DNA from: Promethearchaeota archaeon
GTDB taxonomy: Archaea > Asgardarchaeota > Lokiarchaeia > Sigyniarchaeales > SOKP01
DNA: 22,049 bases
Direction: 5' to 3'
NCBI GenBank assembly: GCA_048940645.1
Contig: JBHLOI010000057.1
Span: 1 to 22,049, forward strand
In this document: positions 11,825 to 21,322 of the stretch, in pieces
Numbering within the stretch: the first letter of the stretch is position 1
Layout: each line of letters begins with the position of its first letter
Program-made: the position numbers and the translations under genes
Notes under the pieces: model-generated
The model's input: only the letters and a program-made list of their open reading frames with translations
Told to the model about the DNA's origin: nothing
Database searches by the model: none

Positions 11825-13051
11825 ATGAAATTTCTTAAAACTATTAGCGTGGAAGAATTTAGAAAAATACTTGATTCAGTTCACAAAATTGAAACAGGAG
11901 AAGAACTGGTCAGTCTAGATGATGCATTCAATAGAATTTTTTCAAAAAATTTAACTAGTAATATTCATGTGCCACATTTTAGAAAATCAAGAATGGATGG
12001 ATATGCTATCATTGCAGAGGATACTTTTGGAGCGGAAGAAGATAACATAATTGATCTTAATTTAATAGAAATAATTCAAGCTGGGGATATCCCACGAAAA
12101 AAGTTGAATCATGGTCAATGCTCTTATGTAGCAACTGGGGCAGCTCTCCCAGAAAATGCAGACGCTGTATTAATGGTTGAATTTACTGAAAAAAGAGATA
12201 ATAAAGTTTTAATTTCTAAAGCTGTTGCTCCTGGAACTCATGTTATTACCATTGGAAATGATATAAAGAAAGGTGATGTCATAGTTAAAAAAGGCACATT
12301 GGTTAATTTAGCAACGATGGGCATTCTAGCTTCTTGTGGAATTAAAGAAATTCCAGTATATAAAAAACCAAAAGTAAGTCTTATAAGCACAGGAAATGAA
12401 TTAGTAACCCCAAATGTAAATGGATTAGAAATTGGTAAGATTTATGATGTAAATTCTATTATTTTGAAAAAAGCCATAGAAAATACGGGTGTTCAAGTGA
12501 ATTTCCTAGGTATTGTAAAAGATATATATGAGGATTTAAAAAAAACAATTGATAAAGCGTTAGATAATAGCGACATAATCATTCTTTCCGGGGGAACTTC
12601 TAAAGGAGAAGGAGATTTGGGCCCCAAGGTTTTAGAAGAGTATAATAATATTGAAATTTTTATTCATGGAGTAAAAATAAAACCAGGAAAACCAATTATT
12701 TTTGTAAAAATGAAGAAAAAAACGTTATTTATTTTACCTGGTTATCCCACTTCTGCATTAAGTTGCTTTTATGTTTTTATTGATAATTTTTTAAGAAAAA
12801 TGTCCGGTCTACCTCTACGAGAGACGTTTGCTAAAGAATTAGAAGTTGGTGAGAGAATTTATAGTACGATTGGTAGGCATGAGTTTAAAGCAGTGAAAAT
12901 TCAAGAAGAGAATGGAGAGAAGAAAATTTTTCCTATTAAAACGGGATCAGAAGCAATAAGTACTATGTTCTATGCCGATGGATATATAGAAATTGATGAG
13001 TTTGAATCAATAATAGAAAAAGGAGATAAAAGAAGAATTTATTTTTTCTAA
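11825..13051 (+). CDS. moeA: Molybdopterin metal-insertase MoeA paralogue 1 (no fused PBP domain)
   Basis: SRMDGYA, TGA.LP..ADAV.MVE, STGNEL, SGGTSKG, KPGKP, LPGYP. Confidence 0.93.
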   Translation: MKFLKTISVEEFRKILDSVHKIETGEELVSLDDAFNRIFSKNLTSNIHVPHFRKSRMDGYAIIAEDTFGAEEDNIIDLNLIEIIQAGDIPRKKLNHGQCSYVATGAALPENADAVLMVEFTEKRDNKVLISKAVAPGTHVITIGNDIKKGDVIVKKGTLVNLATMGILASCGIKEIPVYKKPKVSLISTGNELVTPNVNGLEIGKIYDVNSIILKKAIENTGVQVNFLGIVKDIYEDLKKTIDKALDNSDIIILSGGTSKGEGDLGPKVLEEYNNIEIFIHGVKIKPGKPIIFVKMKKKTLFILPGYPTSALSCFYVFIDNFLRKMSGLPLRETFAKELEVGERIYSTIGRHEFKAVKIQEENGEKKIFPIKTGSEAISTMFYADGYIEIDEFESIIEKGDKRRIYFF

Positions 13052-13084
13052 AAAAAAGTAAACAATAAATGGAAATTGAGAGAA

Positions 13085-13645
13085 ATGAAGAAGAATTCTA
13101 TGGTTCCGAATGAACATAAAAAGAAAGCTCCCGATAAAATTAATTTAGCTCTAATCATAGTGAGTACAAGTCGTTTTAATGAGATAAAATCAGGAAATAG
13201 TAGTACAGATAAAACTATACCGAAAGTAAAAGAATTGTTGAAAAATAACAAATCAGTTTTTTTAACTTTTACCGAGATTATACCTGATTCGGAAGAATAT
13301 ATCAATAATAGCCTATCTCGATTAATGAAAGATCATACAATTGATTCAATTCTATTTAGTGGAGGCACAGGATTATCAACGAAAGATATTACATATGAAA
13401 TATTAGAACCTCGTTTAGAAAAAAAATTTAATGGTTTTGGAGAACTCTTTAGATCACTTTCTTACAATGAAATTGGTACTTCAGCTATATTATCAAGAGC
13501 AACAGCTGGTATTTTAAGAGGAGAAAAAAAGAATAAAGTTATATTCTTACTTCCGGGGTCACCTAATGCTGTGAGGTTAGCACTACGTGATATAATAATC
13601 CCTGAATTAGGACACATTTTATATATTATTAATAAAGAAGAGTGA
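13085..13645 (+). CDS. moaB: MoaB/MogA-family molybdopterin adenylyltransferase
   Basis: VSTSR, IIPD, SGGTG...D.T.E, GFGELFR, SRATAG, LPGSPNA; start uncertain (13076, 13085 or 13100). Confidence 0.92.
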   Translation: MKKNSMVPNEHKKKAPDKINLALIIVSTSRFNEIKSGNSSTDKTIPKVKELLKNNKSVFLTFTEIIPDSEEYINNSLSRLMKDHTIDSILFSGGTGLSTKDITYEILEPRLEKKFNGFGELFRSLSYNEIGTSAILSRATAGILRGEKKNKVIFLLPGSPNAVRLALRDIIIPELGHILYIINKEE

Positions 13646-14898
13646 TATTGGTGAAAAAACTTCGAAAAATAGGATTTTCCAAGTTAACACCTTTAAACGA
13701 GGCTGTAAATATACTATTTTCCAAGATTCAGGTGAATTCAATTGAAGAAATTGAAATCAAGGATGCATTAAATCGGATTCTAGCAGATGATATAATTAGC
13801 GAGATGGATGTTCCACCTTTTGATCGATCTGCTATGGATGGCTATGCCATTAAAGCAGAGGATTCATTTGGAGCATCTCCAAAAAATCCAAAAAAAATCA
13901 AACTTGTTGGTGTAATCGAAATTGGCGAATATACAAGGCTTAGGATAAACAGAAATGAAGGAATGAGAATTTCTACAGGCGCCCCAATTCCAAAAGGTTC
14001 TAATGCTGTTATTAAAATTGAAGATACTGAAATTGATAAGAATTTTGTCAGTCTTTATACTTCGCTCGTCCCAGGACAAAATATTTCTAAAAGAGGGGAA
14101 GATCTAAAGAATGGAACCAAAATTCTAAGTAGTGGTGTAGAATTAAAGGCAGAACATATTGCACTTCTATGCTCATTAGGTTTTAATAAAGTAATGGTTC
14201 GAACAAAACCAGAAATAAGCATTTTCTCATCTGGTAATGAATTAATTGAACCTGGAGAACCATTAAAACCCGGCAAAATCTACAATTCAAACACTTCGAT
14301 GATCTCAGTTTTAGTGAATTTATACGGTGGCATCGTAGTTAGGAGCGAAACTATAAAAGATGATAAAGAATCAATTAAAAAAAAGATAATTGACGCATTA
14401 AAAGATTCTCAGATCATAATCTTTACTGGAGGTACTTCTGTTGGAACTAAAGATTATTTGCCTGAAATTATGGAAGAATCGGGCTTGATTTTGACCCATG
14501 GAGTTGCTCAACGACCAGGAGTTCCCGTTTTGATAGGTTTCTTGAACGATGTTTTAGTATTTTGCCTTCCTGGTACACCAGTTGCTGCATATGTTTCTTT
14601 TTTGAAAATTACTGGACCCTCGATAAGAAAGATGTTAGGCTGTTTAGTTCTAGATCCAAGGATTTCAATTAAAGCAAAAATAGCTAGAGATATTCCTGTT
14701 TCCAGTCTTGGATTTCTCCATTATTTAAGAGTAAAATTGGAAGAATGTAATGAGGAAATTATCGCAGTGCCAGTTAAATTAAGAGGCTCTGGAGTTATAA
14801 GCTCATTAACTTATTCCGATGGAATCGTCGAGATTGTACCACATCAGGAAGGCTTGAAAAAAGGAGAAGATGTAATAGTTAAACTCCATCCAAAATAG
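13642..14898 (+). CDS. moeA: MoeA paralogue 2
   Basis: PPFDRSAMDGYA, STGAPIP, SSGNEL, TGGTSVG..D, LPGTP, GSG.ISSL; start may be GTG 13651. Confidence 0.93.
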   Translation: MILVKKLRKIGFSKLTPLNEAVNILFSKIQVNSIEEIEIKDALNRILADDIISEMDVPPFDRSAMDGYAIKAEDSFGASPKNPKKIKLVGVIEIGEYTRLRINRNEGMRISTGAPIPKGSNAVIKIEDTEIDKNFVSLYTSLVPGQNISKRGEDLKNGTKILSSGVELKAEHIALLCSLGFNKVMVRTKPEISIFSSGNELIEPGEPLKPGKIYNSNTSMISVLVNLYGGIVVRSETIKDDKESIKKKIIDALKDSQIIIFTGGTSVGTKDYLPEIMEESGLILTHGVAQRPGVPVLIGFLNDVLVFCLPGTPVAAYVSFLKITGPSIRKMLGCLVLDPRISIKAKIARDIPVSSLGFLHYLRVKLEECNEEIIAVPVKLRGSGVISSLTYSDGIVEIVPHQEGLKKGEDVIVKLHPK

Positions 14899-15011: not shown

Positions 15012-15893
15012 ATGGTTGATGCAACCAAAATAGTAAAGGAAATACAAGAGAAATATAAAATAATAGGAAGAACAGAAGAATTAAGACAAATTGTATTAGC
15101 TCATGCAGTAGGCAAGAATATATTACTAGAAGGAAATGTAGGTGTAGGTAAAACCACATTAGCCAAAGCGGTTGCAGAATATTATGGTTCTAATGAATCT
15201 AATTTTTATAGAGTTGACTGTAGTGAGGAATTACTACCTCATAACCTTGTAGGATATTTTGAACCACCACTTGTAATTGCGAAGGGATATATTGAAGATG
15301 CTTATGTCTTTGGAGTACTTGCTTCTGCTATGCTTAATGGAGGGTGTCTATTTATTAATGAAATAAACAGGATGCCAGAAAGCACTCAAAATTCTTTATT
15401 AACTGCTTTGGATGAAGGAATTTTAGATATTCCTAAATTAAGAACTATTCACGCCCATAAAGATTTCTTTGTGGTAGCTACGCAAAATCCTGCTGCTCAT
15501 GTAGGTGTGACTGTTTTAGGAGAGGCTTTAAAAGATAGATTTATTTGGATTAAATTAAATTATCAAAATCCTGAAGAAGAAATTTTAATTATAAAAAAAG
15601 AGGCAAAACTCAACATTTCGAATGGAGATAAAATAGCAAATATCTGTCAAAAAATAGTTCAAATAACGCGTGAAACTACTACTATTCGTCGAGGGAGTTC
15701 AATAAGGGGCGCAATCGACCTTGCGGGACTGATTTGTAATTCTGGTAGAGAAAGCAGCACAAAAAACTGGGTTGAGGCAGGCATTATGGCTTTATATAAT
15801 AAAATCGAATTAGAAGATGGTGTAACTAGATCAAAAACAGAAATTATTACTGATATTATCGTTTCTGCCTTAAATGAAGTGGATTTTCAATAA
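15012..15893 (+). CDS. MoxR-family AAA+ ATPase (CoxD-like)
   Basis: IIGR, Walker A GNVGVGKT, Walker B LFINEINR, ATQNP, EALKDRF, SIRGAI. Confidence 0.9.
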   Translation: MVDATKIVKEIQEKYKIIGRTEELRQIVLAHAVGKNILLEGNVGVGKTTLAKAVAEYYGSNESNFYRVDCSEELLPHNLVGYFEPPLVIAKGYIEDAYVFGVLASAMLNGGCLFINEINRMPESTQNSLLTALDEGILDIPKLRTIHAHKDFFVVATQNPAAHVGVTVLGEALKDRFIWIKLNYQNPEEEILIIKKEAKLNISNGDKIANICQKIVQITRETTTIRRGSSIRGAIDLAGLICNSGRESSTKNWVEAGIMALYNKIELEDGVTRSKTEIITDIIVSALNEVDFQ

Positions 15894-17005
15894 TCGATGA
15901 TTTCTCTTCAAAAGTTTCTGAAGAGATTGAGAGTGAACGGTTGCACGTGAGATTAACAGAACGGATTCCTGATAAAGAGATTTTAAGATTCGAGATTATA
16001 AGAAAAAAAAAGAAAAAACCTGACTATTATCATCATTTAGCAAATTCATTGGATTATAAACAAATCAAAGATTTAACCTATTTAGCAATTGAATATAAAA
16101 ATCTGGAAGCTATTATAGGGTTGCTTAAATCAAATGTGTACGCTGCCACAGATGCTTTAGATTGTGATAAGGGAGTTAAATTCTTCTCGGAAAAAGCAAA
16201 AGATTCAGCAACTTCTATGGCAGAAGTTTATTTTTTCATAAGAAGACCTATTTCTGAGAAATATAAAAATATTTTTAGGCGATTGGCTAGGCAAAGTATA
16301 TTAAAAAGTTCGCTTAAAATTACAAGTAAAGGAATAAGAGGAAGTTACAGAAAAACTATTCCATATTATGAGATAGGAATGCCTGAATTTGATATCGATG
16401 AGACCATCCAACATAACCCCCTAAAAATCCATCAAAGAAGTCTATCTTATAAAGATATTTACGGTATTAAAAGAAAACAACAAAAAAGAAAGATTGTTTT
16501 AATTCTTGATACGAGTGGTAGCATGTATGGGAAACTTCTTCTAAACGCTGCTTTAACAACTTCAGTGTTAGCTTATAATATGGAAAAAGAAGATTACGCA
16601 ATCGTGTTATTTAACTCAACAGCCATGGTTTTAAAACATATTAATGAAAGAAAACAAATTGCAACTATTATAGATGAGATTCTTGATTCTGAAGCAGTTG
16701 GTTTTACAAACATTCATATCGGATTAGAAAAAGGATTGAAAGAATTAAGTAAAGTAAAGAAGGATCCAAGAAATCAATTTGGAATCTTAATTACAGATGG
16801 TAATTATAATCGTGGTGAAAAACCATATGAATTGGCGAAAAATTATCCAAAACTACATGTGATTGGGATGCCCGCTGAAAATGATGCTGATAGAGGTATT
16901 AAAACCTGTAAAAAGATAGCAAAAAAGGGTCGCGGGAAGTTTTACGCCGTGAATGACTATAAGGAAATCCCTAGGGCTTTAATTGAATTATTATCACAAA
17001 CTTAA
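15890..17005 (+). CDS. VWA (MIDAS) domain protein, CoxE-like partner of the MoxR ATPase
   Basis: DTSGSM, GFTNI, ITDG MIDAS residues; D..ETI linker motif. The frame is open from 15878, so the start is ambiguous (TTG 15941, ATA 15890, or entry by -1 frameshift). Confidence 0.88.
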   Translation: MIDDFSSKVSEEIESERLHVRLTERIPDKEILRFEIIRKKKKKPDYYHHLANSLDYKQIKDLTYLAIEYKNLEAIIGLLKSNVYAATDALDCDKGVKFFSEKAKDSATSMAEVYFFIRRPISEKYKNIFRRLARQSILKSSLKITSKGIRGSYRKTIPYYEIGMPEFDIDETIQHNPLKIHQRSLSYKDIYGIKRKQQKRKIVLILDTSGSMYGKLLLNAALTTSVLAYNMEKEDYAIVLFNSTAMVLKHINERKQIATIIDEILDSEAVGFTNIHIGLEKGLKELSKVKKDPRNQFGILITDGNYNRGEKPYELAKNYPKLHVIGMPAENDADRGIKTCKKIAKKGRGKFYAVNDYKEIPRALIELLSQT

Positions 17006-17501: not shown

Positions 17502-17650
17502 TTTACAGTAAGACTTCTAATTAATTTATCTCATTATTTTCTATTATAAGCTCTTCACCATAAATTTCTGCATCAATTTTAAAATCCCCATGATTAATTT
17601 AAATGAAATGGGACATAATTTTCCTTATAAATTAAGTGGTTAAAGTAAAA

Positions 17651-19363
17651 ATGAAAAATATAGAAATCGCTAAAATTCTCTATGAAATCGCTGAGCTCTT
17701 AGAATTTAATGAAGTAGTATACAAACCAAGAGCATATAGAAGAGCAGCCCAAAATATAGAGATGTTATCTGAGGATATTATTGGTATATATAAAAAAGGA
17801 AGATTAGATGATATTCCGGGAGTAGGAAAGAGTATAGCATCTAAAATACAAGAATATATTGAAACAGGAGATTTAAAATATTTAAATGATTTAAGGAGTC
17901 AAATCCCCCATGGACTACAGAATTTGTTAAGAGTAGAAGGAATTGGCCCAAAAACAGCACAAATTTTACATAAAGAACTTGCAATTAAGAATATTGATGA
18001 ATTAGAATTAGCTATAAAAAAAGGTAAGTTGCAAAATATTAAAGGCTTTGGAAAGAAAAAAGAAGAAAATCTTCTAAAAGCAATTGAACTATTTAAAACA
18101 TCCCAAGAAAGGTTTCTATTAGGAGATATCTTGCCTATAGCTAAATATATTAAATCAAAATTAAAAAATTTAAAAACAGTTATTAAAGTTGAATTTGCAG
18201 GGTCTATAAGGAGAAGGAAAGAAACAATAGGAGATATCGACCTTTTAGTGGTTTCTAACCAACCTAAAAATGTTATGGAGTTTTTTACTAAATTACCAGA
18301 AATAAAGAATATTGTTTCAAGTGGAGAGATAAAAAGTACAATTGTCCTCAATAATAATATTCAAGTTGATTTAACCATTGTTGAAGATTCTAGCTATGGT
18401 TCAGCCCTTCAATATTTTACAGGATCAAAGGAACACAATATTCAATTAAGAGAATTAGCCAAAAAAAGTAATTTGAAACTAAATGAATTTGGTCTTTTTA
18501 ATTTAAATAATAACAAAAAGATTGCAGGTACTACTGAGACAGAGATCTACGAGTCATTAGGTTTAAGCTATATCCAACCAGAATTAAGGGAGAATCGTGG
18601 GGAATTAGACCTTGCCAAAACTAAAAGGCTTCCAAAGTTAGTAGAACTTAAGGATATTAAAGGAGATTTACACATTCATACAAAATGGAGCGATGGTTCT
18701 AATTCAATTGAAGAAATGGCTATAGCCGCCAAAAATCTAGGATACAAATACATTTCTATTTGCGATCATTCAAAGACTCTAAAAATTGCAGGAGGATTGA
18801 ATGAAAACGATTTAAGAGCTCAGATGAGTGAAATCGAAAAAGTAAATCGCAAATTAGAAGATTTTAGAATTTTATCGGGTATTGAGGTTAATATTGATTC
18901 AGAAGGGAATTTAGACTTAAATAATTCTATATTAAAGGATTTGGATTTTGTAGTTGCTAGTATTCATTCTGGCTTTAAAAAAAGTGAGCGAATTTTAATC
19001 AATAGAGTATTAAATGCAATACATAATGATTACGTTAATTGTATTGGTCATCCATCTGGAAGAATAATTAACAAAAGAGCTCCAGCCATCTTAAATTTCT
19101 CAGAAATATTTGAAGAAGCCGAAAAACTCAATGTATTTTTAGAAATTAATGCCTTTCCTGATCGTTTAGATTTATCTGATCTCAATTGTTTTAAAGCAAG
19201 GGAACGTAATATTTACTTTTCGATCGGTAGTGATGCTCATAATCTTAATCAATTAAACTTTATGGATTATGGTGTTGCTGTTGCTAGAAGAGGCTGGTTA
19301 GAAAGTAAACGTATATTAAATGCGATGGATCTAAAGCAATTAAAGAAAAGTTTAGGGCTTTAA
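17651..19363 (+). CDS. polX: DNA polymerase X with PHP 3'-5' exonuclease domain
   Basis: HhH repeats (IPGVG, VEGIGPK, IKGFG), AGSIRR, GDIDLL, QVDL, YFTGSKEHN; PHP motifs HIHT, DH, GIE, SIH, GHP, SDAH; alternative start GTG 17636. Confidence 0.95.
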   Translation: MKNIEIAKILYEIAELLEFNEVVYKPRAYRRAAQNIEMLSEDIIGIYKKGRLDDIPGVGKSIASKIQEYIETGDLKYLNDLRSQIPHGLQNLLRVEGIGPKTAQILHKELAIKNIDELELAIKKGKLQNIKGFGKKKEENLLKAIELFKTSQERFLLGDILPIAKYIKSKLKNLKTVIKVEFAGSIRRRKETIGDIDLLVVSNQPKNVMEFFTKLPEIKNIVSSGEIKSTIVLNNNIQVDLTIVEDSSYGSALQYFTGSKEHNIQLRELAKKSNLKLNEFGLFNLNNNKKIAGTTETEIYESLGLSYIQPELRENRGELDLAKTKRLPKLVELKDIKGDLHIHTKWSDGSNSIEEMAIAAKNLGYKYISICDHSKTLKIAGGLNENDLRAQMSEIEKVNRKLEDFRILSGIEVNIDSEGNLDLNNSILKDLDFVVASIHSGFKKSERILINRVLNAIHNDYVNCIGHPSGRIINKRAPAILNFSEIFEEAEKLNVFLEINAFPDRLDLSDLNCFKARERNIYFSIGSDAHNLNQLNFMDYGVAVARRGWLESKRILNAMDLKQLKKSLGL

Positions 19364-19435
19364 ATATGAAATAAATAATCCTGTGAGAAAATCATATTTT
19401 TCAACCCAAAATTAAAAGAGAAGGATGTTAAAAGT

Positions 19436-21322
19436 ATGGTAAACAAAAGAGAAGTTGTCCAAAAATTAGAAGATTTAATTAGATACCATCGTAATCTCTA
19501 TTACAACAAGCAACCTGAGATAAGCGATGAAGAATATGATGCTTTAGTGGATGAGTTAAATAAACTTAATCCAAATAATAAAATTTTCTCTGAAATTGGA
19601 AAAGATTCCGCAGCTGGATTTATAAAAAGAAAGCATGTAATTTTTATGAATTCACAATCTAAAATTAATACTCCTAATGAATTATTAAAATGGAATAAAA
19701 AAATTTCGTGTTCTATATTAGTCGTGCAATTAAAACTTGATGGTATTTCAATTGAAGTTCAATATATAAACGGTGTGCAAACATTTTCTGTCACTAGGGG
19801 CGATGGTGAAATTGGAGATGATATTACTAAAAATGTTAAAAAAATGCATGGTTATCTTCCAAAAGTGGATGATAATTTTTCAGGAGCTGTAAGAGCAGAA
19901 ATTATATTAACTCGCAATATTTTTAAAAAAAAATATTCCCAACAATATGCAAATTGTAGAAATACCGCATCTGGTATTAGTAAAAGAAAAGATGGTCATG
20001 GTTGTGAAGATTTGTCACTAATATATTACGATGCATTAAGTATTAACGATAAAACTAAGTTTGATAATGAAATCGATAAAATTGAATGGATGAAAAAACA
20101 GAAATTTAATGTAATTGAAACTAAAACCTTTGAAAATGTGGAGGAAATTGTAAAATATCGTGAAAATGTGATTAGAATAAGAAAACAATTGAATTTTGAT
20201 ATTGATGGTCTTGTTATAAAATGTAATGAAATTGATCTTGAAGACATGAACCGAATTACTCCAATGAGACAAGTTGCATTTAAATTTCCTTCACAATCAG
20301 TAGTTTCGGTTTTAAAGGATGTAGAATGGAGTATTAGTGGTGGAACGTTTACGCCTGTAGCAATTATTGATGAGGTCGAAATAGGAGGTACGAAAGTAAG
20401 ACGTGCTTCATTATCAAATCCTGATGAAATTAAACGATTAGGATTGAAATTGGGATCAATCATAATGGTTACAAAACGGGGGGATATTATTCCTAAAGTT
20501 GAAAAAGTTGTTGAAAACCCTTCTACCACAAAAAGTATCATATATCCAATTTTATGTAAATCCTGTGGTACAAAATTAAAAAATATTGGAGTAAAACTAT
20601 ACTGTCCGAATGAAAGTTGTCCTAGTAAAGAATTTCATAGACTCGAAGTATGGATTAGAGTTTTAGGGGTAAAAAATTTTGGAGAAAAATTATTAAGAAA
20701 ATTGTATAACACCAATAAAATTAAAAAAATCGCGGATTTATATGATTTAAAAGTTGAGGATATTTCGAAATTAGAAGGTCAAGGGAAAAGATCCGCAGAA
20801 ATTGCTTTAGGAAATTTATTTAAAATAAAAGAAATCTCTTTATCAAAATTTATTGCTGCTTTTAACATTGAAAACATAGGAGAATCAATTGCTAAACTTA
20901 TAACAGATGCGGGTTATGAAAAACTTGATTCTATTAAAAATGCTAAAATCCATGAATTAGCGAAAATTGAGGGAATAGGTGAAATAAACGCAGAAACTAT
21001 TATTGATGGTATCAATAAACTTTATAATGAAATGATTTCTGTTTTAAAAAAAAGTATTATTAAAATTAAGGAACCTTCAAAAGGACAGTTAAACGGAAAG
21101 TCATTTTGTTTCACAGGGGCGCTAAAATCAATGACACGAGATCAAGCAAAAACTTTATTGGAAGAAAAAGGTGCAATATTTAAGAATAGCGTAGTAAAAA
21201 ACTTAGATTATTTAATTACTAATGATCCCCATTCTGGGAGTGAAAAGAATCTAAAAGCTAAAGAATATGGTATTAAAATTATAACTGAAGAACAGTTTTT
21301 AAATATTTTAAAATCAAACTAA
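19436..21322 (+). CDS. ligA: NAD+-dependent DNA ligase
   Basis: Ia domain YY...P.ISD.EYD, KLDG adenylation motif, TRGDG..G.DIT, RN.A.G, DGLVIK, AFKF, OB fold, GDIIP, C4 zinc finger, HhH, C-terminal BRCT. Confidence 0.96.
   Translation: MVNKREVVQKLEDLIRYHRNLYYNKQPEISDEEYDALVDELNKLNPNNKIFSEIGKDSAAGFIKRKHVIFMNSQSKINTPNELLKWNKKISCSILVVQLKLDGISIEVQYINGVQTFSVTRGDGEIGDDITKNVKKMHGYLPKVDDNFSGAVRAEIILTRNIFKKKYSQQYANCRNTASGISKRKDGHGCEDLSLIYYDALSINDKTKFDNEIDKIEWMKKQKFNVIETKTFENVEEIVKYRENVIRIRKQLNFDIDGLVIKCNEIDLEDMNRITPMRQVAFKFPSQSVVSVLKDVEWSISGGTFTPVAIIDEVEIGGTKVRRASLSNPDEIKRLGLKLGSIIMVTKRGDIIPKVEKVVENPSTTKSIIYPILCKSCGTKLKNIGVKLYCPNESCPSKEFHRLEVWIRVLGVKNFGEKLLRKLYNTNKIKKIADLYDLKVEDISKLEGQGKRSAEIALGNLFKIKEISLSKFIAAFNIENIGESIAKLITDAGYEKLDSIKNAKIHELAKIEGIGEINAETIIDGINKLYNEMISVLKKSIIKIKEPSKGQLNGKSFCFTGALKSMTRDQAKTLLEEKGAIFKNSVVKNLDYLITNDPHSGSEKNLKAKEYGIKIITEEQFLNILKSN

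Follow-up and report, generated by a model that had tools for sequence, protein, structure and literature searches.

An ATPase gene and an overlapping VWA frame in a Promethearchaeota archaeon: one gene probably recoded by programmed -1 ribosomal frameshifting

We analyzed a 22,049-nucleotide (nt) stretch of DNA from a metagenome-assembled genome of a Promethearchaeota archaeon (Lokiarchaeia, Asgard archaea; NCBI GenBank assembly GCA_048940645.1, contig JBHLOI010000057.1, positions 1 to 22,049 of the forward strand), hereafter the window. In it, the open reading frame (ORF) of a MoxR-class AAA+ ATPase ends inside a second ORF that lies in the -1 frame and encodes a protein with a VWA domain. 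An annotation made from the letters of the window, which we call the original prediction, proposed that a programmed -1 frameshift fuses the two. The features of this junction are as follows; amino acids are abbreviated aa and base pairs bp.

15012-15893, + strand: AAA+ ATPase ORF of the MoxR class (AAA_5), 293 aa, the short product; identified by Pfam match and a conserved Walker A
15887-17005 (open from 15878), + strand: -1-frame VWA ORF encoding an acidic linker, then ~150 aa of helical region, then a VWA domain whose MIDAS is intact; identified by Pfam and homology
15881-15887, + strand: slip site G_GAU_UUU, with the conserved core U_UUU at 15884-15887 and the zero-frame Phe codon at 15885-15887
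15882-15906, + strand: nearly invariant 25-nt block GATTTTCAATAATCGATGATTTCTC, per-position conservation 0.87-1.00 among 78 family members
15891-15893, + strand: zero-frame stop TAA, one codon past the slip codon
15894-15902, + strand: 5' flank of the hairpin, U-C-[GAU]-GA-UU, with fixed synonymous choices
15903-15910 paired with 15919-15926, loop 15911-15918, + strand: hairpin with an 8-bp stem and conserved pairing
15927-15932, + strand: 3' flank of the hairpin, UU-GA-GA, with G15929 to A15932 invariant in 65 aligned sequences
15941-15943, + strand: TTG, first canonical start in the VWA frame, not kept as a start in relatives

The 3' end of the ATPase ORF reads GTG GAT TTT CAA TAA, and a TGA at 15875-15877 bounds the open VWA frame upstream; the original prediction had located the ATPase end, the heptamer and the -1 frame correctly. 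In a Pfam scan, the ATPase matched AAA_5 with 69.3 bits (cut-off 22) and AAA_3 with 66.3 bits (cut-off 27), and its best NCBIfam assignment was GvpN/MadB-like, not ChlI/ChlD. Against TIGR02031 (BchD-ChlD) it scored 23.3 bits with a cut-off of 499.55, and the Pfam Mg_chelatase match was confined to residues 16-55. NorQ and CbbQ were among the PDB sequence matches. Midasin was considered as the nearest relative and rejected: its PDB match of E = 7e-34 sums six AAA domains, and the best single midasin domain reached 40 bits versus 55 bits for the bacterial MoxR 2r44. The Walker A motif GxxGxGKT is conserved among orthologues. The Walker B motif has the form hhhNE in 87 of 87 orthologues, with Asn replacing the usual Asp (LFINEINR, residues 113-120, window 15345-15368), indicating a conserved variant and not a decayed site.

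The VWA ORF matched Pfam VWA (40.3 bits, cut-off 23.8), VWA_2 and VWA_CoxE, and its MIDAS residues D-x-S-x-S..T..D are invariant among orthologous loci. The ~150-aa region between the acidic stretch and the VWA domain has no Pfam match. The genome also holds an 830-aa VWA paralogue (G000 contig 68, 15173-17665; locus L151:174-2666), which occurs in most genomes of the genus. Its C-terminal VWA/CoxE-like domain is ~25% identical to the window's VWA ORF, and its first 660 residues have no Pfam match. We considered this paralogue as a fused form within the same genome and rejected it because no AAA domain was detectable.

Orthologous pairs were collected from the genus and order (29 pairs), and the addition of 80 named contigs brought the set to 108 loci, 91 of them non-redundant; codon-level counts refer to 87 complete loci. 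In the first 29 pairs the VWA frame was -1 throughout, the two frames overlapped by 13-85 nt and the junction lacked an ATG. The -1 phase relative to the ATPase held in 108 of 108 family and order loci. All 91 non-redundant loci have an ATPase end of the form NNT TTT (one sense codon) TAA/TAG, or a stop directly after TTT, placing the stop 0 or 1 codon past UUU in every case and directly after it in eight. The slip codon itself was TTT in 87/87 loci; by comparison, at ten further Phe columns, each conserved at >=95%, TTC accounts for 10-45 of the 87 codons (11-52%). The codon before it ended in T, again in 87/87, and an Asp at that position was GAT in 80/80, with 9-25 GAC codons in control conserved Asp columns.

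The sequence U_UUU lets tRNA-Phe re-pair perfectly in the -1 frame. Two sets of loci narrow the position of the frame change further: those that read T_GAT_TTT have a -1-frame TGA directly 5' of UUU, and those that end GAT TTT TAA/TAG have the zero-frame stop directly 3' of it. Between them they confine the change to the UUU codon. The -1-frame TGA of T_GAT_TTT is also what appeared as "1 TGA" in the VWA matches of two relatives, and selenocysteine was discarded as its explanation. A canonical U_UUA_AAU heptamer that some family loci carry five codons upstream was likewise set aside as unproductive, the -1 frame meeting TAA immediately after it.

Synonymous diversity, expressed as observed over that expected from codon usage, was 0.10-0.18 from -3 to +8 codons of the slip site. 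It returned to ~0.9 by +18 codons, and the value for the whole gene was 0.89. Beyond +18 codons, normal synonymous diversity combined with conserved amino acids is the signature of a translated sequence, not of an RNA element. The 25-nt block occurs once in this genome and is almost invariant, despite the proteins of the 78 family members being just 74-97% identical. Taken as a whole, the junction is clearly more than a product of chance, as its phase, slip codon, synonymous diversity and this block show.

A conserved start codon is missing from the VWA frame. Among the 91 non-redundant loci, the first ATG, GTG or TTG lies anywhere from codon 4 to codon 111 past the slip site, at codon >=30 in 64 and at codon >=50 in 55. 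The encoded protein is conserved from the slip-site Phe onward, with F3, R25, Y51, N75 and other residues invariant, and homology to relatives begins at residue 1-3 of the open frame. In most relatives the Leu codon at TTG 15941 is TTA, CTT, CTC or CTG, and the Val codon at GTG 15947 is GTA or GTT in relatives. TTG 15941 is a possible minor internal start, in this genome only. A separate ATG at 15896-15898, in the ATPase's own frame and 2 nt past its stop, opens a 17-codon ORF (window 15896-15949). Its invariance in the family is due solely to its position within GAT GAT, and we found no evidence of its use.

Beyond the family and order, a VWA orthologue was found in 189 of 301 sampled genomes and in 45 of 70 genera. 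Of 39 distant loci parsed, drawn from about 20 other families of the phylum, 36 have the -1 phase. The alignment of the junction that the original prediction had proposed shows that both the -1 phase and the U-run are kept throughout the family and the order and in most of the phylum. Other lineages have, at the ATPase stop or beside it, A_AAU_UUU/C, G_GGU_UUU, C_CCU_UUU, U_UUU_UUA/C or A_AAC_CCU, beside G_GAU_UUU or A_GAU_UUU. Independent swaps to other slippery heptamers at the same spot are what a tandem or A-site slip on the ribosome would predict. At loci L139-L141 (family f26), downstream of U_UUU_UUA comes a plain GC-rich hairpin of 6-10 bp that lacks GA flanks. At L124 (family f5), A_AAC_CCU lies directly 5' of TGA.

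In-frame fusions were also found, some of them in the same phylum. An exhaustive profile-free search showed that ~26 of the best 150 VWA-ORF homologues are 519-711 aa long and match in their C-terminal half. Ten of these fused homologues were tested: all ten have AAA_5 at the N-terminus, nine have Pfam VWA, and the C-terminal half matches the VWA ORF in all ten. One of the fused proteins, P0129 (642 aa), belongs to a cluster that holds Promethearchaeota and Kariarchaeaceae records. It is colinear with the ATPase (40% identity, E = 3e-47) and with the VWA ORF (31%, E = 1e-23), and has TTDDY where the window's trans-frame junction has IIDDF. The existence of natural AAA_5-VWA fusions indicates that a single chain is viable.

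In family f31 (L116, L117 and L146), the VWA gene is in the +1 phase and has its own ATG 7-10 nt past the ATPase stop, and the ATPase 3' end reads ...UUU UUU CGG GCC (AAA) stop. We regard this as the ordinary two-gene state, a separate-gene form of the pair that does not refute the frameshift. Judged by their sequences, then, fused, frameshifted and split forms of the ATPase-VWA pair all exist. Public gene calls record two genes, with the VWA proteins arbitrarily truncated to 289-358 aa.

Downstream of the slip site, the hairpin and the extension of its stem by UCGA (15894-15897) and UUGA (15927-15930) fold as the original prediction described, and the extended structure begins 6 nt past UUU. 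In the alignment, 82.5% of hairpin cells are paired, compared to 27-55% in slid registers; the sum-56 register (slide -3), in which ~40% of cells pair, was rejected. Compensatory changes occur: C.G has become U.A in 2 sequences, and 7 sequences have A.U in place of G.C. The covariation score of 0.115, versus 0.093 for shuffles, was reached by 0 of 500 shuffles. The UCGA/UUGA extension is broken in 8-10 of the 65 sequences. The flanks are otherwise invariant and give no covariation signal in the window family: GAT GAT in the 5' flank is retained in nearly all family loci, and the Glu codon in the 3' flank is GAG in all 65. A search of Rfam around the junction returned chance-level matches only and no family.

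Collectively, these data argue that the ORFs at 15012-15893 and 15878-17005 are one gene, recoded by a programmed -1 ribosomal frameshift at U_UUU 15884-15887. On comparative grounds we assign this reading a probability of roughly 0.85; all of the comparative tests that accompanied the original prediction support it. We infer the slippage itself, and an efficiency at which most ribosomes would stop at TAA 15891-15893 and release the 293-aa ATPase. The remaining fraction would slip back one base as tRNA-Phe decodes UUU 15885-15887, re-pairing with UUU 15884-15886. Reading in the -1 frame would continue through UCA AUA AUC and produce a protein of ~75 kDa with the junction ...NEVDF-SIIDDFSSK..., for which the predicted trans-frame peptide is ...EVDFSIIDDFSSK. 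Its expected length of 292 + 372 = 664 aa agrees with the original estimate, as does the 293-aa short form. The fusion would run from the ATPase through the acidic linker and the helical region to the MIDAS-bearing VWA domain. The conserved RNA that starts 6 nt downstream, namely the hairpin 15903-15926 with its GA-rich flanks, which possibly form a box C/D-like kink-turn, probably stimulates the slip, and the neighboring stop codon may help as well. If ChlI/ChlD is a guide, the long form would join the ATPase ring sub-stoichiometrically as an adaptor-bearing subunit.

Several observations weigh against this reading. The window's G_GAU_UUU is not a canonical X_XXY_YYZ heptamer, and tRNA-Asp in the P site cannot fully re-pair. 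The base before GAT (15881-equivalent) is G in most loci, A in ~14 and T in 2, indicating that U_UUU is the constant core and that tandem P-site re-pairing is not conserved. The core of the originally proposed heptamer accordingly stood up to comparison and its leading G did not. The hairpin is short and AU-rich (-9.8 kcal/mol). Its fold gives z = -0.10 for a 73-nt stretch and -0.72 for one of 39 nt, and is matched by 44 of 200 shuffles. Because it is no more stable than shuffles, it is not distinctive on its own, and its covariation support appears real but modest. Conserved pairing with a few compensatory changes is thus what survives of the proposed stem; unusual stability is not. Finally, the f31 pair can work as two separately initiated genes, and TTG 15941, present in this genome and its three closest relatives, could start a 354-aa VWA protein that lacks only the acidic linker.

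The two ORFs could instead be separate genes, with ribosomes re-initiating after TAA at the near-cognate ATA 15890 or ATC 15893 to give (M)IDDFSSK... and no fusion. We consider this unlikely. The original prediction had named a coupled start at ATA 15890 as its competing explanation, and the ATA does overlap TAA in the same geometry as ATGA coupling; within the window family, every listed locus keeps ATA or ATC at these two positions. However, at least a dozen family loci have GTA in place of ATA, many loci have GTA, CTA or TTA there, and no ATG occurs at the equivalent position among the -1-phase orthologues. The Ile codon ATC 15893 is GTC (Val) in six loci and ATC wherever the residue is Ile. 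The equivalent codons in other families (TTA GTT, GTA ACC, CTA AAG, TTA GGG and similar) include none that is near-cognate. Re-initiation would also leave unexplained the invariant TTT, the invariant T before it, the stop 0-1 codon past UUU and the canonical heptamers at that spot in other lineages. Slightly less likely again is an ordinary internal start at TTG 15941 or GTG 15947, with the upstream -1 codons untranslated and conserved only as RNA. A weak GTGA four nt upstream of TTG 15941, the truncated proteins proposed by gene callers and the true ATG start of the f31 VWA gene are consistent with such a start. By contrast, these Leu and Val codons are not starts in most relatives, in 55 of 91 loci the first canonical start comes only at codon >=50, and late starts would delete the invariant R25 and often Y51 or N75. 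The return to normal synonymous diversity beyond +18 codons, where amino acids are still conserved, also argues against untranslated RNA.

Slippage could alternatively occur during transcription, with RNA polymerase slipping on the T-run so that a U is missing from or added to some transcripts, which then carry the fusion in a single frame. The conserved element is indeed a homopolymeric U-run, and the chlD precedent discussed below relies on long poly-A runs, for which slippage by the polymerase is difficult to rule out. Here the run is just 4 U in most loci, far short of the 7-9 or more that transcriptional slippage usually needs. The A_AAC_CCU and G_GGU_UUU sites elsewhere fit tRNA re-pairing better than polymerase slippage, and a conserved downstream RNA structure at the usual distance of a frameshift stimulator fits a ribosomal mechanism; we therefore rate polymerase slippage as very improbable. 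The least probable explanation is a pseudogene or assembly error, in which a once-fused gene was broken by a 1-nt indel. In-frame fused homologues exist, as such a history would have it, but >120 independent assemblies, produced by many studies, share this "break". Purifying selection acts on both halves, in which Walker A and MIDAS are invariant. This conservation of the break effectively refutes the explanation.

Within the frameshift reading, the RNA element may be more than a plain hairpin. In loci outside the window family, we searched for any hairpin of >=5 bp that starts within 13 nt of the stop. Among 37 such hairpins, 21 are directly flanked by 5' GA and 3' NNNGA, 19 of these 21 reading GAUGA or AAUGA, and the hexamer C-GAU-GA adjoins the hairpin in 19 of the 37 loci. 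The stems themselves differ among families (GGAGG, GGGAAUUC, GGCUC, GAGGACAU, AGGAAUU and others). In most Asgard families the arrangement is GA-[helix]-GAU-GA, 2-5 nt past the stop. Such GA/GAUGA flanks read as the sequence signature of a kink-turn (k-turn) in which the hairpin serves as the C helix; the C helices of these other families measure 5-10 bp and vary in sequence. A loose k-turn descriptor (stem >=4 bp) matched 11.7% of background windows and was replaced by a stricter one and by unbiased scans. The stricter descriptor matched 17 of 52 junctions versus 1.8% of background windows. The bulge codon was GAU in 16 of these 17 loci and AAU in one, where GAT makes up just 65% of the Asp codons of those genes. 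As in a box C/D k-turn, GA...GAUGA flanks with a 3-nt bulge adjoin a helix in many Asgard families.

In the window family these two strands flank the hairpin in the opposite order, C-GAU-GA lying at 15895-15900 and U-GA-G at 15928-15931. Possible pairs are G15899.A15930 and A15900.G15929, with a bulge at G15896-U15898. The swapped order gives a box C/D-like arrangement, placing AUGAUU opposite UUGA with U.U pairs, but the C helix is just 2 bp (C15895.G15931 and U15894.A15932). The descriptor cc-NNN-GA-xx-stem-xx-GA-cc matched 77 of 78 family loci versus 0.6% of background windows, the family loci being close kin and so not independent. The fixed synonymous choices (ATC for Ile, and GAG at G15931) would fit this folding. 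The invariant positions also encode Asp-Asp and Glu, however, and DD[FY] is kept as protein in the in-frame fused homologue. For this family we accordingly offer the kink-turn as a hypothesis. A different k-turn, with a C helix formed by GAUU/AAUC around the slip site, was rejected because the required 5' GA is absent.

We suggest tentatively, and at less than even odds, that the frameshift stimulator is a kink-turn acting as an RNA-protein switch, with the window's strands circularly permuted in the manner of box C/D. If it is, and if it binds L7Ae, a protein of the ribosome and of small ribonucleoproteins, the amount of free L7Ae would set the ratio of short ATPase to fusion. Such an element would be a naturally occurring k-turn frameshift signal that depends on a protein, found in the archaea most closely related to eukaryotes, and would represent a new class of stimulator. 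Among titles and abstract openings of papers that mention kink-turns, frameshifting and L7Ae together, we found no natural k-turn frameshift stimulator. Recoding of UGA is brought about by the selenocysteine insertion sequence (SECIS), an element of the k-turn type. Lokiarchaeota are reported to have SECIS elements that resemble those of eukaryotes (PMC8211752).

Among known shift sites, G_GAU_UUU is that of plant RNA viruses (dianthoviruses and umbraviruses), where a 3' stem-loop follows it. The viral heptamer is identical to that of the window, but it is read by eukaryotic ribosomes; here the G at its front is dispensable and lineages differ in the heptamer that they use. The closest precedent in a cellular gene is the frameshifted chlD gene (fs-chlD), cited in the original prediction and borne out by the literature: one gene yields a short ChlI-like and a long AAA+-VWA product through a -1 shift on poly-A runs A7-A11, with an efficiency of up to 63% in reporters (Antonov et al. 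2013, PMC3711429). Besides bacteria, the fs-chlD case covers methanogenic archaea (PMC3711429; Kuznetsov et al. 2022, PMC9227772). As in fs-chlD, a short AAA+ protein would arise by termination and a long AAA+-linker-VWA protein by a -1 shift, the locus is annotated as two genes, fused relatives exist and the system is found in archaea. Unlike fs-chlD, the ATPase is of the AAA_5/MoxR class, the slip site is of the U_UUU type and not A7-A11, a conserved 3' RNA element is present, the lineage is Asgard and there is no link to a chelatase H/N subunit. The present system thus shares the logic of fs-chlD but falls outside it by AAA+ family and slip site.

According to a 2021 review, fucA1 of Saccharolobus solfataricus is the only experimentally demonstrated -1 frameshift in an archaeal cellular gene (PMC8211752). 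In both cases a cellular gene of an archaeon has a heptamer and, downstream of it, a putative stem-loop. The fucA1 shift is strain-specific and resembles a "corrected" indel with one functional product, whereas here the signal is phylum-wide and two functional products would be expected. In its protein composition the pair resembles NorQ/NorD, CbbQ/CbbO, CoxD/CoxE and RavA/ViaA, in which an AAA_5/AAA_3 ATPase sits beside a MIDAS-bearing VWA protein. We know of no report that such NorQ/NorD-type MoxR-VWA pairs are joined by frameshifting, and a search of the full-text literature returned nothing on frameshifting in Asgard archaea or Lokiarchaeota, on MoxR-VWA frameshifting or on this system.

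If the frameshift reading is true, it would be a second kind of archaeal -1 frameshift, in a recoded gene that has two products and is conserved in most of the Asgard phylum. A further AAA+ family would then follow the logic of ChlI/ChlD, in which recoding fixes the share of the few ring subunits that bear an adaptor. Several interchangeable slip sites together with a conserved RNA would make archaeal, eukaryote-like frameshift mechanics testable. Because the locus is annotated as two genes, structural or functional work on the MoxR-VWA pair would begin with an incorrect protein.

Two MoeA genes and a MogA/MoaB-like gene immediately precede the ATPase on its strand (window 11825-14898), and 25 related loci also have a MoeA homologue upstream on the same strand. 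These neighbors hint at a possible role for the ATPase-VWA pair in the maturation of a molybdenum or tungsten cofactor enzyme, by analogy with CoxD/CoxE. Downstream, a gene for a PolX-PHP polymerase is adjacent to one for an NAD-dependent (bacterial-type) DNA ligase that contains a BRCT domain (window 17636-21322); NAD-dependent ligases are unusual in archaea.

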